From Phycisphaerae bacterium SM23_33 (lineage in GTDB: Bacteria > Planctomycetota > Phycisphaerae > SM23-33), in the NCBI GenBank assembly GCA_001303665.1, contig LJUF01000010.1:1-34009 (forward strand): a stretch of 34,009 bases of DNA, read 5' to 3'. Positions within the stretch are counted from its first letter, which is position 1. Every line of letters starts with the position of its first letter. A program made the position numbers and the translations under genes. This document shows positions 5,262 through 15,063 of this stretch, piece after piece. A model generated the notes under the pieces. It had not been told where the DNA came from. It saw only the letters and a list, made by a program, of their open reading frames with translations, and did not search any database.

Positions 5262-5906
5262 TCAGAACCGCCCTCCCCCCCAACGGGATACCAGCCGCTC
5301 CGACAGAACCACGATATCCTCCGGGCAGAAGAACGACTCGATGTTGGCCGGCAGCAGCAGCACGGCCGAGGGCTCCAGCTCCTGATCGCCGCCGTACCAC
5401 ACCAGCCGCAGCCGCACCCGCGGATACACGCGGAAATCAAAGGCCGCGTCGCCCTCCGGTGCCGCCCGCCCGCCCAGTGCCTCCGCCGCCGCGCGGAGCG
5501 CCCGCCCGTCCCGGCCGACCGTCCGGCACAGCCGCTCGATGACGCGCCGCCGATACACGGGGGCGTAGGCCCTTCCGGCGGGCAGGTCGGCGAAGCTCAC
5601 GGCGGGGGCCTGCGGTGAGGGGCGCTCGGCCACGGCGAGGTAGTGCAGCGTCAGGATCCGCCACGCGGCGGCGGTCGGCCGGCCGGCGGAGGTTCGCACC
5701 GTCCCGCCGTCCAGCTCGACGCTGAGGAGGTCATCGAGGACGGGCACGACCCAATGCTGGCTGGCCCGGCGGGCGCCAAGCCATTCCAACTGCTGCGGTG
5801 GCTGCCGGCAGACCCGGATCAGAGCCTGGGCGGCGGCGTCCTCCAGGTTGTGCTGGGGGGGCGGGACGGCCGACCGGCCCGCAGATTCACGCCGGCTGTC
5901 CGCCAC
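5262..5906 (-). CDS. DUF3786-family protein (uncharacterised family I recall as often linked to corrinoid/acs clusters)
   Basis: 214-aa ORF with a GTG start. Length and sequence (WRILTLHYL..., FADLPAGRAYAPVYRRRVIERL..., FCPEDIVVLSE) fit my recollection of DUF3786. It lies in the same strand and operon as acsE. The start codon is uncertain. Confidence 0.5.
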   Translation of the reverse strand: MADSRRESAGRSAVPPPQHNLEDAAAQALIRVCRQPPQQLEWLGARRASQHWVVPVLDDLLSVELDGGTVRTSAGRPTAAAWRILTLHYLAVAERPSPQAPAVSFADLPAGRAYAPVYRRRVIERLCRTVGRDGRALRAAAEALGGRAAPEGDAAFDFRVYPRVRLRLVWYGGDQELEPSAVLLLPANIESFFCPEDIVVLSERLVSRWGGGRF

Positions 5907-6210
5907 TGGATTTTCTCCTCAGGCGCTGCCGGATGCTCTCCAGGCAGCGCTTGGCGCGGGGGTCGTTCTTGATCCGGGCCAACCGGCGCTGAAGCTCGCG
6001 GACGTCAATCGCCTCGCCCAGGCACACCGCCGCCGCCGGGCACCACTCGGCGCAGCGGGGAAGCAACTCCCGCAGCAGCAACCGCCCGCACCGGCATCGC
6101 CGCTTCGCCTCATCGGTGAAGAACTCCACCACCCGCCCGCAGGCCGGACACGGCACCAGCACGCTGTCCAGGTTCCGCGGCGTCGTCTGCCCTGGGCACT
6201 TGTTCATCAT
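5887..6210 (-). CDS. Small cysteine-rich (zinc-ribbon-like) hypothetical protein
   Basis: 107 aa with 8 Cys in pairs (C5, CPAC at 21-24, CRC at 39-41, CAEWC at 54-58, C63). ATGATG start 9 nt after the acsE stop. The 3' end overlaps the DUF3786 ORF by 20 nt. I recognise no family. Confidence 0.45.
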   Translation of the reverse strand: MMNKCPGQTTPRNLDSVLVPCPACGRVVEFFTDEAKRRCRCGRLLLRELLPRCAEWCPAAAVCLGEAIDVRELQRRLARIKNDPRAKRCLESIRQRLRRKSSGGQPA

Positions 6211-6219
6211 GACACTTCA

Positions 6220-7020
6220 TCATACGCCGGGCTGTCCCTGCCGGGCGGCTTCCAGGTACGAGTCGCAGTAGATCATCTTCTCCAGCAGCAGCTCGGCCGT
6301 GATGGCCGCGTCCATCAGCTCGGTATCCAGCGGGTCCATGATGGCCGCGTCCATCCCCTGGGCCATGGCCATCGCCAGGTACGTGCGGTTGATCAACTCC
6401 CGGTTCCGGCAGCGCTGGGAGACGTTGGACAGCCCCAGCATCAGGTGCGGCGGCGGGTCGGCGAAGGCCTTGATCTGGGCGATGGCCTGCATGCAGTGGA
6501 GCGGATTCTTGGGGGACACGTTCACCGGCAGGATGATGGGGTCGATGAACAGCCTCTCCAGCTCCAGACCGCCCTCCATGGCCACGGTGATGAGCTGGGC
6601 GCCCAACTCCACGCGCCCCTCCACGTTGCCGGGCACGCCCTGGGCGTCGATGGTCAGCCCGATCAGCGACGCCCCCTGCTCCACGGCCAGGCCCACGTAC
6701 TGGGAGGCGATCTCCGGGTCGGCCTTGCTGGAGTTAAGGATCTTCTTCCCCGGCACCTGGGGGATGACGGCGGACATGACGTTCCACTTGGCCGTGTCGA
6801 TGGCCACCGCCGCGTCGGTGACCGAGCGGATCACCTCCACCAGCCACAGCATCCCGCCCTTGTCATCGCGGACGGCCGGGCCGACGTTCACGTCCAGGGC
6901 GCTGGCGCCGGCCTGCATCTGCCGCCTGGCGAGGTCCTTGATGACCTCTGCGTTCTTCTCGCGAAGGGCCTGCTTCACGTCCGTGAACATCCCATTGATG
7001 CGCTCGCCGATGACGTACAC
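6220..7020 (-). CDS. acsE: Methyltetrahydrofolate:corrinoid/iron-sulfur protein Co-methyltransferase
   Basis: Pterin-binding fold with an N-terminus VYVIGERINGMF like Moorella MeTr. The GTG at 7020 is preceded by GGGAGAA, giving 266 aa. The longest ORF extends to a TTG at 7068, but that extension runs into the AT-rich repeat tract. Confidence 0.92.
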   Translation of the reverse strand: MYVIGERINGMFTDVKQALREKNAEVIKDLARRQMQAGASALDVNVGPAVRDDKGGMLWLVEVIRSVTDAAVAIDTAKWNVMSAVIPQVPGKKILNSSKADPEIASQYVGLAVEQGASLIGLTIDAQGVPGNVEGRVELGAQLITVAMEGGLELERLFIDPIILPVNVSPKNPLHCMQAIAQIKAFADPPPHLMLGLSNVSQRCRNRELINRTYLAMAMAQGMDAAIMDPLDTELMDAAITAELLLEKMIYCDSYLEAARQGQPGV

Positions 7021-7071
7021 GCTGTTTCTCCCGTTCCTTAGAACGTCCGGGTCACATGAAAATCCCAATAT

Positions 7072-7087
7072 CGAAATCCGAAATCCT
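7072..7087. repeat. Left arm of a perfect 16-nt inverted repeat (CGAAATCCGAAATCCT) within a GAAATCC-rich tract (7058-7110)
   Basis: It is the exact reverse complement of 7510-7525. A further partial copy AAATCCGAAAT lies at 7099-7109. The tract is visibly AT-richer than its flanks. Confidence 0.85.
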
Positions 7088-7131
7088 AAACAAACTCCAA
7101 ATCCGAAATGCCAAATGTCTCAAACGTCGCG

Positions 7132-7497
7132 TCACTGTGACTTCTGCAGTATGGATGCGAATATCTTCGTCAACTCCAAAGCCTCCTGTACCAGGGGCGT
7201 TCGCTGATCTTCCAGATCCTGGTCCTCACGGGTGTCCATCAGCCTGAGCCAATACTGGCTTTCCTTGGCCTCCTTGCGGCAGATCTTGATGCGCATCACG
7301 AAGTCTTTCTTACTCAGGGCTTCGTTCGCCTCAATATAGTTCGAACCGACCGAGCCGCAGGCCCTGACAACCTGTCTTCCGTCCTCGATGTTCGCGAGGG
7401 TCTTCGGGAGCTTCCCCACAAAGGCTCGAACGGCCTTGGCAAACTTAAAGGTCCGATCTTCCAGGTCGTACCGTTTTGGGGTTTGAGTTTGTGTCAT
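7132..7497 (-). CDS. Four-helix-bundle protein (23S rRNA intervening-sequence protein family)
   Basis: 121 aa. FKFAKAVRAFVGKLPK...SVGSNYIEANEALSKKDF...I CRKEAKESQYWLRL is the characteristic signature of this family. GC content is lower than in the neighbouring genes. It is inserted between acsD and acsE. Confidence 0.9.
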   Translation of the reverse strand: MTQTQTPKRYDLEDRTFKFAKAVRAFVGKLPKTLANIEDGRQVVRACGSVGSNYIEANEALSKKDFVMRIKICRKEAKESQYWLRLMDTREDQDLEDQRTPLVQEALELTKIFASILQKSQ

Positions 7498-7509
7498 TCG
7501 GTCTTGTTC

Positions 7510-7525
7510 AGGATTTCGGATTTCG
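7510..7525. repeat. Right arm of the perfect 16-nt inverted repeat (AGGATTTCGGATTTCG); the GGATTTC-rich tract spans 7510-7537
   Basis: It is the reverse complement of 7072-7087. It lies between the acsD stop (7529) and the four-helix-bundle start (7497), partly overlapping the acsD 3' end. Confidence 0.85.
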
Positions 7526-7528
7526 GGA

Positions 7529-8509
7529 TTAGGATTTCTCTTCGTCAGCCGGCATGAACCGGTCGACGGCCTTCCTGACGTACTGGATGGCGTCGGGATG
7601 GCGCATGACCACCAATTCGGCCCCGGCCTGGAGCAGCACCAGGGCGGTGGCGGCCTCCCACATCACGCCCCAGTAGGGGCGGGTCTCGTCGGTGACGCCC
7701 TCGAAGGGGGGCGCCTTGGCCTCCTTGGCCCGCCAGGCCTCGAAACCCACGTCGCAGATGACCGGCTGGCCCAGCAGCTTGTCCCCCCGCAGCGCCGCCA
7801 GCCGGCCGCGCTCCTGGATGCTGTAGACGTATTCGATCCCGTACCCCAGCGCGCCGGTGGTGGGGAAGATGACGATGTCTCCCACGGGAAAGCCGGCGTC
7901 CGAGCACAGAATGTTGACCTGCTTGGCGATGTTGATGTCCAGGGGGCTCTCGGCAATCAGCTTGTGCTTGTCAGCCAGGCACACGGCCACAATGGTGCGG
8001 TAGTTCTTTTCCCGGGCCGTGCCCATCAGGCAATTCTCGCCTTTGGCGGCGGCCGAGGCCGCCGGCAGGATCTGGTTGTCCTTTTCGTCGACGCCGCAGC
8101 CCCAGATGATCAGCGGCACGCCCACGGCCGCGAGGACCTCCTTGACGGTCTGGGCGCACTGCTGGGGGGAGCGATCGCCGGAATCGGGGTGGGCGCCCAT
8201 CAGCCGCAGGCAGATCAGGTCCACGCCGAACTCGACGGCCTTCTTGGCCCACTCGCCGGGAGAGGACAGGGCCTCGCCATAGGCCTGGCGCAGCACCTCG
8301 GGCCAGGCCTCCCCGCCGCTGTCCCAGACCTCCGCGGCGATCGCCGGCCGGCGGCCGACCGCCCCCTCAAACGACAGGAACGGCAGCGTCTCGGCCCCGC
8401 CGATGGTGACGGTGCTGGTTCGCGTGCCGCCCTCCTCCGGGGTGGCGCCGATGACCACGGTGTTGACCTTGCCGGTCCATTTCTCCTTCACGTCCGGGAG
8501 GCTGCTCAT
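7529..8509 (-). CDS. acsD: Corrinoid iron-sulfur protein small subunit
   Basis: The ATG at 8509 is preceded by GAAGGAG and forms an ATGA overlap with the upstream gene's stop, giving 326 aa. The TIM-barrel CdhD/AcsD-like sequence includes ICLRLMGAHP and DINIAKQVNIL. The ORF-track start at 8563 is probably too far upstream. Confidence 0.9.
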   Translation of the reverse strand: MSSLPDVKEKWTGKVNTVVIGATPEEGGTRTSTVTIGGAETLPFLSFEGAVGRRPAIAAEVWDSGGEAWPEVLRQAYGEALSSPGEWAKKAVEFGVDLICLRLMGAHPDSGDRSPQQCAQTVKEVLAAVGVPLIIWGCGVDEKDNQILPAASAAAKGENCLMGTAREKNYRTIVAVCLADKHKLIAESPLDINIAKQVNILCSDAGFPVGDIVIFPTTGALGYGIEYVYSIQERGRLAALRGDKLLGQPVICDVGFEAWRAKEAKAPPFEGVTDETRPYWGVMWEAATALVLLQAGAELVVMRHPDAIQYVRKAVDRFMPADEEKS

Positions 8510-9321
8510 GCTATCGGCTCCTTCTGCTGTGACTTTGGGGCTTCCGCCGGCCGGCCGAGGCACAGGCCGGTCAGCTCCTCCACCGCCGGCCGGGCCGCCG
8601 CGCCGGCGGAGTCGTCAATCGGCCGGCCGGCCACGCAGCGGCGGTACAGGTCGGCGTCGAAGGGAACCCGGACCGTCGCATCCACCTGGGGGGCCTGTGC
8701 CAGGTCCGGGCCGGGCCATGCCGCGCCGGCTTCGGCCGGGCCGCCCCGGCCGAGGTTGTTCAGCGCCAGCACCCGCCGGTGGACCTGAACCGGCAGGGCG
8801 TCGGCCAGTTGGGCGATGCGCCGGGCGCTGGCCAGCCCGACGGGCGTGGCCTCGGCCACCAGCACCAGCGTCTCGACGTCGTCGACCGTGAGCCGCGAAA
8901 GGTATTCCATCCCCGCCTCACAGTCCACCACCACGGCCTGGTAGCTGCCGCGAAGCTCCTGGAGGTAGCGCCGCAGCAGGGCGTTGACGTAGCAATAGCA
9001 CCTGGGGCCCTCGGGCCGGCCCATCGTCAGCAGGTCGAAGCCGACCTCCTCGCTCAGCAGCTCGGCGAGCCACTGGTCCAGCAATCGTTCCTTGGGTATC
9101 TCGCTGATTTCCTGGGCGGCTTGGCCCATGCGGTCGCGGAGGTCGGCGATGCTGCCGCCGGCCTGCACCCCCAGGGCCAGGGCCAGGGTGGCGTTGGGGT
9201 CGGCGTCCACGCCCAGCACGGGCTTGACGTTCACGCGCAGCAGTTGGCGCAGCACCATGGCCGCCAGCGTCGTCTTGCCAGCCCCGCCCTTGCCGCTGAA
9301 GGCGAAGATCGCTCCGGCCAT
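8506..9321 (-). CDS. acsF: CooC-type nickel-insertion ATPase of the acs operon
   Basis: Deviant Walker A GKGGAGKTT, a CxC metal motif (CYCY), and a position between acsV and acsD as in Moorella-type acs clusters. Confidence 0.85.
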   Translation of the reverse strand: MAGAIFAFSGKGGAGKTTLAAMVLRQLLRVNVKPVLGVDADPNATLALALGVQAGGSIADLRDRMGQAAQEISEIPKERLLDQWLAELLSEEVGFDLLTMGRPEGPRCYCYVNALLRRYLQELRGSYQAVVVDCEAGMEYLSRLTVDDVETLVLVAEATPVGLASARRIAQLADALPVQVHRRVLALNNLGRGGPAEAGAAWPGPDLAQAPQVDATVRVPFDADLYRRCVAGRPIDDSAGAAARPAVEELTGLCLGRPAEAPKSQQKEPIA

Positions 9322-14962: not shown

Positions 14963-15063
14963 AACGGACCTCCCGACTGGACTGCCTTTGTCTGCTTACG
15001 GCGTCTGACACATCGGCCGCCGGCCTCCGGCGGCGAGCATCCTCATTCCTGATTCCTGGCCTA

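Follow-up and report, generated by a model that had tools for sequence, protein, structure and literature searches.

A low-GC insertion separates acsD from acsE, two genes of the acs (Wood-Ljungdahl) operon, in the genome of Phycisphaerae bacterium SM23_33. The stretch of DNA that was analysed, referred to below as the window, comprises 34,009 nucleotides (nt) of contig LJUF01000010.1 (positions 1 to 34,009; C226 in our numbering), one of the 322 contigs of a 3.43-Mb assembly with 67.8% guanine plus cytosine (GC), which is 76% complete. The insertion is a cassette, in which a single gene for a four-helix-bundle protein is bracketed by two inverted arrays ("arms") of a heptanucleotide repeat. 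The cassette is a real feature, beyond chance; its protein belongs to the PF05635/TIGR02436 family, known from the intervening sequences (IVSs) of 23S rRNA; and its gene and arms pass jointly, as one unit, through both vertical inheritance and horizontal transfer. We think it rather probable that the cassette is an element of the IVS type that resides in the mRNA of a protein-coding operon instead of 23S rRNA, and whose arms would pair within the polycistronic transcript to give a stem of the RNase III type.

Anatomy of the cassette and its four-helix-bundle protein

A first-pass annotation, made from the letters of the window alone, had described an AT-richer block between acsD and acsE with a lone gene for a 121-amino acid (aa) four-helix-bundle protein, as well as a perfect 16-nt inverted repeat embedded in longer heptamer tracts, with an extra partial copy at 7099-7109. 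All of these features are borne out by the present analysis (Table 1). The GC content amounts to 0.50-0.56 over positions 7000-7600, compared with 0.62-0.78 on both sides, and the gene of the four-helix-bundle protein, supported by profile matches, is the sole open reading frame (ORF) between the arms. The 16-mer CGAAATCCGAAATCCT is found at 7072-7087 and its exact reverse complement at 7510-7525, with one occurrence each in the whole assembly. Upon extension, the arms reach 34 nt with 88% complementarity, at a separation of 410 nt, and a pair-by-pair reading of the 3' arm against the 5' arm reveals 30 Watson-Crick and 2 G·U pairs among the 34 positions. According to Tandem Repeats Finder both arms are period-7 arrays, with 7.6 copies of AAATCCG at 7060-7109 and 4 copies of GGATTTC at 7511-7538. 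The extra partial copy at 7091-7115 is 80% identical to 7066-7090, and the degenerate block that it belongs to pairs with 7474-7492, a segment that includes the first codons of the ORF, so that the stem reaches inward across the start codon. The stop codon of acsD (TAA, 7529-7531) is located inside the 5' arm, which also encodes the final two AcsD residues (K and S). No recognisable Shine-Dalgarno sequence precedes the four-helix-bundle ORF, a simple consensus scan revealed neither a promoter nor a terminator inside the cassette, and no Rfam family matches anywhere in the window.

Table 1. Coordinates of the cassette, its parts and the flanking genes in the window.
Feature	Positions	Strand	Sequence, basis or remark
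Whole cassette (5' arm, four-helix-bundle ORF, 3' arm)	7060..7537	minus	about 478 nt, low GC; inverted repeat, GC dip, metagenome contigs spanning it
5' arm in the sense RNA	7504..7537	minus	AAATCCTAATCCCGAAATCCGAAATCCTGAACAA; heptamer array, unit CGAAATC
Four-helix-bundle gene, 121 aa, S23p / 23S_rRNA_IVP / TIGR02436 family	7132..7497	minus	profile and structure matches
Second, degenerate heptamer block past the ORF stop	7091..7116	minus	repeat search and predicted fold
3' arm in the sense RNA	7060..7093	minus	TTGTTTAGGATTTCGGATTTCGATATTGGGATTT
Direct repeat	7206..7218	unassigned	GATCTTCCAGATC; one endpoint of the 249-nt deletion in a natural strain
Direct repeat	7455..7467	unassigned	GATCTTCCAGGTC; opposite endpoint of the 249-nt deletion
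acsD (corrinoid Fe-S protein small subunit, CdhD family), upstream of the cassette	7529..8563	minus	PF03599, E 7e-35; NF003376, 389 bits
acsE (methyltetrahydrofolate:corrinoid Fe-S protein methyltransferase), downstream of the cassette	6220..7020	minus	PF00809, NF005719

The protein matches PF05635 with an E-value of 4e-12 (46.7 bits against a cut-off of 33.8) and TIGR02436 with an E-value of 4.5e-19 (68.7 bits against a cut-off of 24); no match was found in the PADLOC and PHROGs libraries. The family is reportedly characterised by the motif GxxRxxxSxxxNxxE (Lin 2006; Zhang 2013). In the cassette protein it is present as R45-x3-S49-x3-N53-x2-E56, with S49, N53 and E56 invariant in an alignment of 36 sequences, and members of the window cassette's clade have an invariant Q42 where the leading G would stand. 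Comparison of codon positions reveals purifying selection, with approximately 78% identity at positions 1 and 2 versus 41% at position 3. The AlphaFold model of the monomer, calculated from the 36 sequences, exhibits a predicted local distance difference test score (pLDDT) of 91.7 and four helices (13-29, 34-58, 63-86 and 93-120). The closest solved relative by sequence is the S23-family pentamer from Bacteroides (2RLD in the PDB, E 4e-11), which is also among the top Foldseek matches of the model (template modelling (TM) score 0.71-0.81), together with 2GSC (Xcc0516) and with Avd (4DWL and 8UB7). All three, 2RLD, 2GSC and Avd, are known to form homopentamers.

The match to Avd raises the question of whether the gene could encode an accessory protein of a diversity-generating retroelement. 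Avd-like proteins are members of the same Pfam family and the predicted fold resembles that of Avd (TM score 0.66-0.78 to 4DWL and 8UB7); moreover, both belong to pentamer-forming families, and Avd binds nucleic acid within a ribonucleoprotein. However, the sequence identity to Avd is as low as 10-11%, the neighbours are acs genes, no pair of template and variable repeats is present in 6900-7700, and no match to the reverse transcriptase family RVT_1 was found in the 76%-complete assembly. Avd genes, in turn, are not known to be bracketed by heptamer arms. This explanation is effectively refuted.

The acsD-acsE junction in relatives and in natural populations

We have compared the acsD-acsE junction in 26 genomes, comprising the window and 25 others from the same family, order and class. 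In 15 of them, the acsD stop and the acsE start are separated by 0-20 nt, which accommodate just a ribosome-binding site; because of this, we regard the insert as the derived state, in agreement with the first-pass annotation, which had taken the block for an insertion. The gap is 32-73 nt in four genomes, 118-139 nt in another four, 228 or 262 nt in two, and 508 nt in the window, and a four-helix-bundle gene is present at this junction in none of the 25 other genomes. An ancient resident gene would be expected to occur in relatives at the same position without flanking repeats, and a lack of other copies of the repeat in the genome would likewise have spoken against the first-pass reading. 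Instead, the relatives exhibit empty sites or arms without the gene, and the repeat recurs on contigs C91 and C37 of the same assembly.

Two of the occupied junctions are particularly informative. The 262-nt junction L009 (genome G023) can be aligned with the window cassette over 100 nt at 74% identity, and the aligned region spans the tail of AcsD, an arm-encoded stop in AAATCCTAA that is shared with the window, the ATG and the first 13 or so codons, which now contain stops; the interior consists of unrelated AT-rich sequence and the 3' arm is degraded. By this alignment, L009 is a decayed copy of the cassette at the identical nucleotide position in another genus, which implies that the insertion is not recent. 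In the 228-nt junction L014 (G013), the insertion, located immediately downstream of the acsD stop, is a hairpin that possesses GAAATCC/GGATTTC arms but no gene. In a tree calculated for AcsD and AcsE, the occupied genomes are scattered among the empty ones, while their monophyly is not rejected by the approximately unbiased (AU) test (p-AU 0.24-0.26); the different insertion point of L014 favours at least two insertion events.

Other inserts were also encountered at this junction. A genome from another genus (L052, G100) contains a different hairpin of approximately 139 nt (GTTCGTC / CTTATCAGTCCTAT ... ATAGGACTTATAAGAC), and it seems that the acsD-acsE junction accepts or attracts several kinds of hairpin inserts. 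Two members of genus g8 (L012 and L057) possess 118-nt junctions that end with GGGATTTTGAG...GGGAATCCTGAAC in L012 or AAAATCCTGAAC in L057, resembling fragments of both cassette arms, and in both genomes acsE starts with GTG, as it does in the window and in L009. On the basis of these letters, the L012 and L057 junctions may represent the scar of an old cassette.

The locus is also found in natural populations. Single metagenomic contigs run from acsE through the cassette to acsD in marine samples from 2017 and 2021 (X1, 6600-7756; X2, 6600-7737) and in a marsh sample from 2025 (X4, 7015-7676), and parts of the region are covered in three further marsh samples from 2025 (X5, X6 and X8). In another marsh run, X3, a 922-nt contig lacks positions 7206-7454, which corresponds to an in-frame deletion of 249 nt (joint 7205 to 7455, with 10 nt shared), flanked by direct repeats of 10-13 nt, GATCTTCCAG(A/G)TC. 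This haplotype is distinct, with linked substitutions at 7105, 7117 and 7489, and it coexists with the intact form, the deleted interior of which is covered by other X3 contigs. The deletion is a step from the gene-bearing cassette toward the gene-less hairpin, caught in nature. Contigs in at least five runs carry either the cassette or its deletion derivative, and no empty acsD-acsE allele was seen within the species. Joints between 7104 and 7510, observed in X1, X2 and X4, were considered as candidates for such an allele and rejected; they comprise only 25-26 nt per side at a depth above that of the locus, and we read them as gene-less hairpins from elsewhere.

In runs X1-X8 the arm sequences (7060-7116 and 7493-7539) reach a summed contig depth that exceeds that of the surrounding locus 30-45-fold, and therefore GAAATCC arrays must be abundant in many other loci or organisms of these communities. 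Such abundance, together with the fragmentation of the metagenome-assembled genome, might suggest that low-GC foreign DNA has been misjoined into the operon. An assembly artefact or chimera is nonetheless the least credible of the explanations considered here, as single contigs from independent samples and years cross from acsE through the cassette to acsD, and a homologous decayed copy occupies the same position in L009.

Gene and arms as a unit within the genome and across phyla

The first-pass annotation had proposed to test whether other four-helix-bundle genes of this genome share the flanking repeat. They share the architecture but not the sequence of the repeat: the assembly contains six TIGR02436 genes, each of them bracketed by tandem heptamers in inverted arrays, but the GGATTTC-type unit is not used genome-wide, since each cassette has a unit of its own. 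These units are CGAAATC in the window (C226), CGAGGGA in C72, CGGTAAC in C215, CGATTTT in C56, GAGGTGA in C115 and CAATTGC in C45. In an all-against-all control of the six sets of arms, the complementarity score of a 5' flank is 16-34 with the 3' flank of the same cassette, compared with 7-13 with those of the other cassettes. The pairwise identity of the six proteins does not exceed 44%, and therefore the genes are not recent copies of one another. At least four of the six cassettes lie between two genes that are read in one direction, and point the same way as these (DUF58 and VWA; two radical-SAM/SPASM genes; SDR and HAD; AcsD and AcsE). Of the 109 positions of the profile, the paralogue at C115:12519-12758 matches no more than 1-80, its C-terminal residues being unrelated, and it is probably a frameshifted pseudogene within intact GAGGTGA arms.

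Heptamer arrays are not confined to the cassettes. Period-7 tracts number 85 genome-wide, versus 42 of period 5 and 35 of period 8, and outside the cassette arms they comprise many solo arrays and a few gene-less hairpins, although the ungapped and consensus-based searches for partners of orphan arrays missed short hairpins with a variable seventh base, of which RNAduplex recovered a few. As many as 30 of 39 orphan tracts are within one mismatch of the unit of a resident cassette (composition-preserving shuffles: mean 10.6, maximum 21). Two further orphan classes, CAATCGN and CCGGGAA, are abundant and have no matching cassette in the 76%-complete assembly. A gene-less hairpin with the GAAATCC unit is found at C91:3100-3237, where four 5' units are followed by a loop of some 80-90 nt and then by GGATTTC units. 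Its 3' half can be aligned with the 3' end of the window cassette (55 of 84 positions), and on this basis it seems to be either a derivative that arose by deletion or a relative that is non-autonomous. The genome's own 23S rRNA contains no heptamer-armed insert in the assembled part, where small expansions alone were observed.

Homologues of the cassette protein are present in 57 of the 92 genomes from the bacterial family of the window. The approximately 25 best matches within this family (52-67% identity) are all found in other contexts, with neither acsD nor acsE within 1.5 kb, and most of them retain arrays of CGAAATC, CCAAATT or CTAAATC followed by GAAACAA; a group of the family at approximately 45% identity possesses TAATGAC-type arrays instead. 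Beyond the family, we analysed the best 80 matches, with one genome per species. They exhibit 61-74% identity and come from more than 12 phyla, and several of them are closer to the window protein than any homologue from its own family. Their sources include Planctomycetota, Desulfobacterota, Bacteroidota, Verrucomicrobiota, Patescibacteria, Nitrospirota, Acidobacteriota, Chlorobiota, Zixibacteria, KSB1, Armatimonadota and Gammaproteobacteria. Two short contigs (L137 and L142), binned as Methanophagales (ANME-1) archaea in an assignment that is unverified, encode proteins with 64-65% identity and carry AAATCC-type arms; if this binning is right, the unit has crossed domains.

The arms accompany the gene in most of this set. 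Their score is at least 14 in 60 of 79 testable loci, with the CGAAATC...GAAACAA type, and most of the other loci have shorter versions. When anchored on the start codon, the upstream regions yield the consensus AAATCCGAAATTCGAAATTCGAAATTCGAAACAAATTCAA, followed directly by ATG, with the core positions conserved at frequencies of 80-98%. By comparison, third codon positions of the ORF are 41% identical between pairs (65% for the whole ORF), i.e. synonymous sites are saturated, and therefore the sequence of the arms must itself be constrained, and not their ability to pair alone. The ORF is intact in 76 of the 80 cases, and the GC content of the cassette is lower than that of its flanks at nearly every locus. 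The upstream gene typically ends 40-70 nt ahead of the four-helix-bundle start, at or within the 5' arm, and among 70 cassettes, 53 have the same orientation as both neighbours, where 25% would be expected by chance. The clade represented by C72 displays the same behaviour: 24 of 28 homologues are armed, and close relatives mostly possess AGGGACN units, which drift as the identity of the protein falls. Altogether, the cassette looks widespread and horizontally spreading.

Possible mechanism, host operon and relation to known systems

In the scheme that we favour, a promoterless S23p/PF05635 gene with two inverted, clade-specific heptamer arrays has been inserted at the otherwise tight acsD-acsE junction in the orientation of the operon, and would be transcribed within the acs polycistronic mRNA. 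There, the arms would pair into a stem of at least 34 bp that includes the acsD stop and the start codon of the cassette, with the ORF looped out. The stem would be a substrate of the genome-encoded RNase III, by analogy with the IVSs of Coxiella, Leptospira and Salmonella, and its cleavage would excise the cassette RNA and separate the acsD message from that of acsE. Within a lineage, the gene is then lost via internal deletion, leaving gene-less heptamer hairpins. Closure of the whole ORF by the arms in the sense RNA, which the first-pass annotation had envisaged, holds in the predicted fold of a 521-nt stretch: the arms constitute the long closing stem in both the minimum free energy (MFE) and the centroid structures, and the AUG of the four-helix-bundle ORF (RNA positions 64-66) is paired in the MFE fold. 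A gene for RNase III is present on C277 (214 bits against a cut-off of 166). As for the formation of the stem in vivo, its cleavage by RNase III and an effect on the expression of acsD and acsE, we infer them from this fold and from the analogy.

Several observations weigh against this scheme or limit it. The z-score of the fold of the 521-nt stretch is only -2.3. Selection for pairing in RNA could be expected to favour G·U over A·C at the non-Watson-Crick positions of the arms, but in the sense strand no such excess was found (55 vs 40, 74 vs 85 and 21 vs 9; pooled 150 vs 134, p = 0.37), and maintenance at the level of DNA or concerted evolution fits this result equally well. No run holding the locus was found among the RNA sequencing runs searched. 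The occupied junctions do not form a clade on the best tree, and either one insertion followed by many precise losses or several independent insertions are possible. Finally, a "neutral selfish RNA" cannot be the full account, because purifying selection clearly acts on the protein, in contrast to the ORF of Coxiella.

It is conceivable, if unlikely, that the arms are instead DNA-level substrates (hairpins or a cruciform folded in single-stranded or supercoiled DNA) of a mobile DNA element, comparable to integron attC sites, REP/RAYT elements or the ends of IS200/IS605, which are acted upon by a recombinase in trans or by the four-helix-bundle protein itself, the RNA stem being a by-product. 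The spread of one unit over phyla and unrelated contexts, the lack of asymmetry between G·U and A·C, and the conservation of the arms in excess of the needs of pairing would all agree with such an element, as would the orphan arrays and gene-less hairpins that share the units of resident cassettes (30 of 39 against a null expectation of 10.6), the way non-autonomous derivatives would. However, no transposase, integrase or reverse transcriptase is encoded in or next to the cassette, in which the four-helix-bundle protein is the only product (no systematic search was made for an enzyme that would act in trans from another part of the genome), and there is no enzyme among the solved relatives of this protein family. 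Nor is there a target-site duplication in the 60 armed loci, in which the longest word shared outside the arms averages 3.5 nt for true pairs and 3.66 nt for mismatched pairs. The polymorphism between empty and filled sites that a mobile DNA element might leave is likewise missing within the species, in contigs from at least five runs, and the prevalent co-orientation with the neighbours is not required of an element that acts in DNA only, though selection after insertion could yield it. The TTCATG word found on both sides of the window cassette was considered as a possible duplication and discarded, as it is asymmetric in position and probably due to chance.

Alternatively, the cassette could be a domesticated regulatory module, in which the pentamer binds its cognate arrays in the acs mRNA as well as the orphan arrays, and thereby tunes how acsD and acsE are processed, stabilised or coupled in translation. 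We consider this improbable. The purifying selection on the protein, the clade-specific conservation of the arms in register with the start codon, and the presence of orphan arrays with matching units at other junctions would suit a regulator, and in the predicted fold the stem brings the acsD stop near the ribosome-binding site of acsE. Yet, the operon of most relatives has a bare junction of 0-20 nt, the element has decayed at this junction in two other genera and in one natural strain, and elsewhere the same clade of cassettes resides in unrelated operons, which indicates no role specific to acs.

A bolder reading can be put forward tentatively, as a possibility on which we would not rely. 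The four-helix-bundle pentamer might read its own heptamer array in a sequence-specific manner, because the heptamer is specific to the clade, and no other component at hand that could recognise it is clade-specific as well. Protein and arms would then make up a minimal autonomous element that colonises transcribed junctions, such as cistron boundaries and rRNA helices, in Bacteria and possibly in Archaea; the orphan arrays and gene-less hairpins would be non-autonomous derivatives acted on in trans, and the IVSs of 23S rRNA would be the copies that landed in rRNA.

The host operon is encoded in the minus strand, in the order CODH, oxidoreductase, AcsB, AcsC, RACo, CooC-like ATPase, AcsD, the cassette, AcsE, a small Cys-rich ORF, DUF3786 and a DRTGG protein. 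The TTG at 7068, which the first-pass annotation had chosen as the start of acsE, should be replaced: most likely, translation starts with the GTG at 7020 (VYVIGERING), because it is aligned with the start of the relatives (M-Y-V-I-G-E-R) and preceded by GGGAGA. The Cys-rich ORF, located between acsE and the DUF3786 gene (5887-6210, minus), encodes 107 aa with CPxC...CxC motifs and has no match in Pfam. A small period-7 tract (CAGGAAT CAGGAAT GAGGAT in the sense strand) is found at 15040-15058, where a junction of 100 nt separates acsB from the gene of the pyridine-nucleotide oxidoreductase in the acs operon, with no inverted partner seen.

IVSs in 23S rRNA that carry an ORF were reportedly described by Ralph & McClelland in 1993. 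They occur in Coxiella burnetii, Leptospira, Xanthomonas and Brucella, and the nature and origin of rRNA intervening sequences and of the S23p proteins have been open since the early 1990s. The IVS of Coxiella, which encodes S23p, possesses a 28-bp stem with tandem heptamers, is excised by RNase III, has a poor Shine-Dalgarno sequence and has suffered a 176-bp deletion in the ORF of one strain (Warrier et al. 2016, PMC4990558). The resemblance to rRNA IVSs, suggested initially on the grounds of geometry, thus extends to many features: a protein of the family encoded in the loop, an element of approximately 430-480 nt, terminal inverted repeats with a stem of approximately 28-34 bp, heptamers in tandem just ahead of the start codon, a Shine-Dalgarno sequence that is weak or missing, the deletion of large parts of the ORF in some strains, and reliance on read-through transcription from the host. 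In particular, the 249-nt deletion in run X3 parallels the 176-bp deletion in Coxiella (PMC4990558). On the other hand, the cassette lies between acs cistrons and not in helix 25 or 45 of 23S rRNA, purifying selection is clear for the clade of its ORF, as opposed to the decay of the Coxiella ORF, and excision by RNase III, established experimentally for rRNA IVSs, is for the window cassette deduced by analogy.

Intergenic heptamer arrays are also known from other bacteria, an example being the STRR (short tandemly repeated repetitive) sequences of cyanobacteria. Inverted arrays of GGGAATC have been described in intergenic regions of Xanthomonas (Rehm et al. 2015, PMC4692102), and heptanucleotide elements in Geobacter metallireducens (PMC2700814). 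Like the arrays of the Xanthomonas type, those studied here are made of approximately four 7-nt units with one variable position, often occur as inverted pairs, are mostly intergenic, and vary in length between close relatives. In these papers the arrays are interpreted as G-quadruplexes or sites for regulators and are tied to no gene family; in contrast to the arrays as described there, those of the window bracket a four-helix-bundle gene, and their unit tracks the clade of the protein.

Genes annotated as 23S_rRNA_IVP have also been reported within cas operons, along with the R-x3-S-x3-N-x2-E motif (Zhang, Doak & Ye 2013, PMC3936711). The similarity consists in members of the same family, with the same motif, being wedged into an unrelated operon outside rRNA; the passage in question mentions neither flanking heptamer arms nor a cassette architecture, and the host in our case is the Wood-Ljungdahl acs cluster. 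In the searchable literature, we found no paper that links this gene family to inverted heptamer arms outside rRNA.

The locus described here displays the design of a gene within a heptamer hairpin in an ordinary, highly conserved metabolic operon. What it adds to the study of such elements is a conserved junction that, across genera, is found empty, filled, decayed or reduced to a hairpin, together with a deletion variant that segregates in the wild, as well as quantitative evidence that the arms, kept in register with the start codon, are conserved from phylum to phylum, the statistic of co-orientation, and the match between orphan arrays and cassettes. That the arms have remained fixed while gene and arms crossed more than 12 phyla points to a specific reader of the heptamer, which would most simply be the four-helix-bundle protein. 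Such cassettes can split tightly coupled cistrons, as in the case of acsD and acsE of the Wood-Ljungdahl pathway, probably altering their co-expression, and this bears on the annotation and the operon models of uncultured anaerobes.

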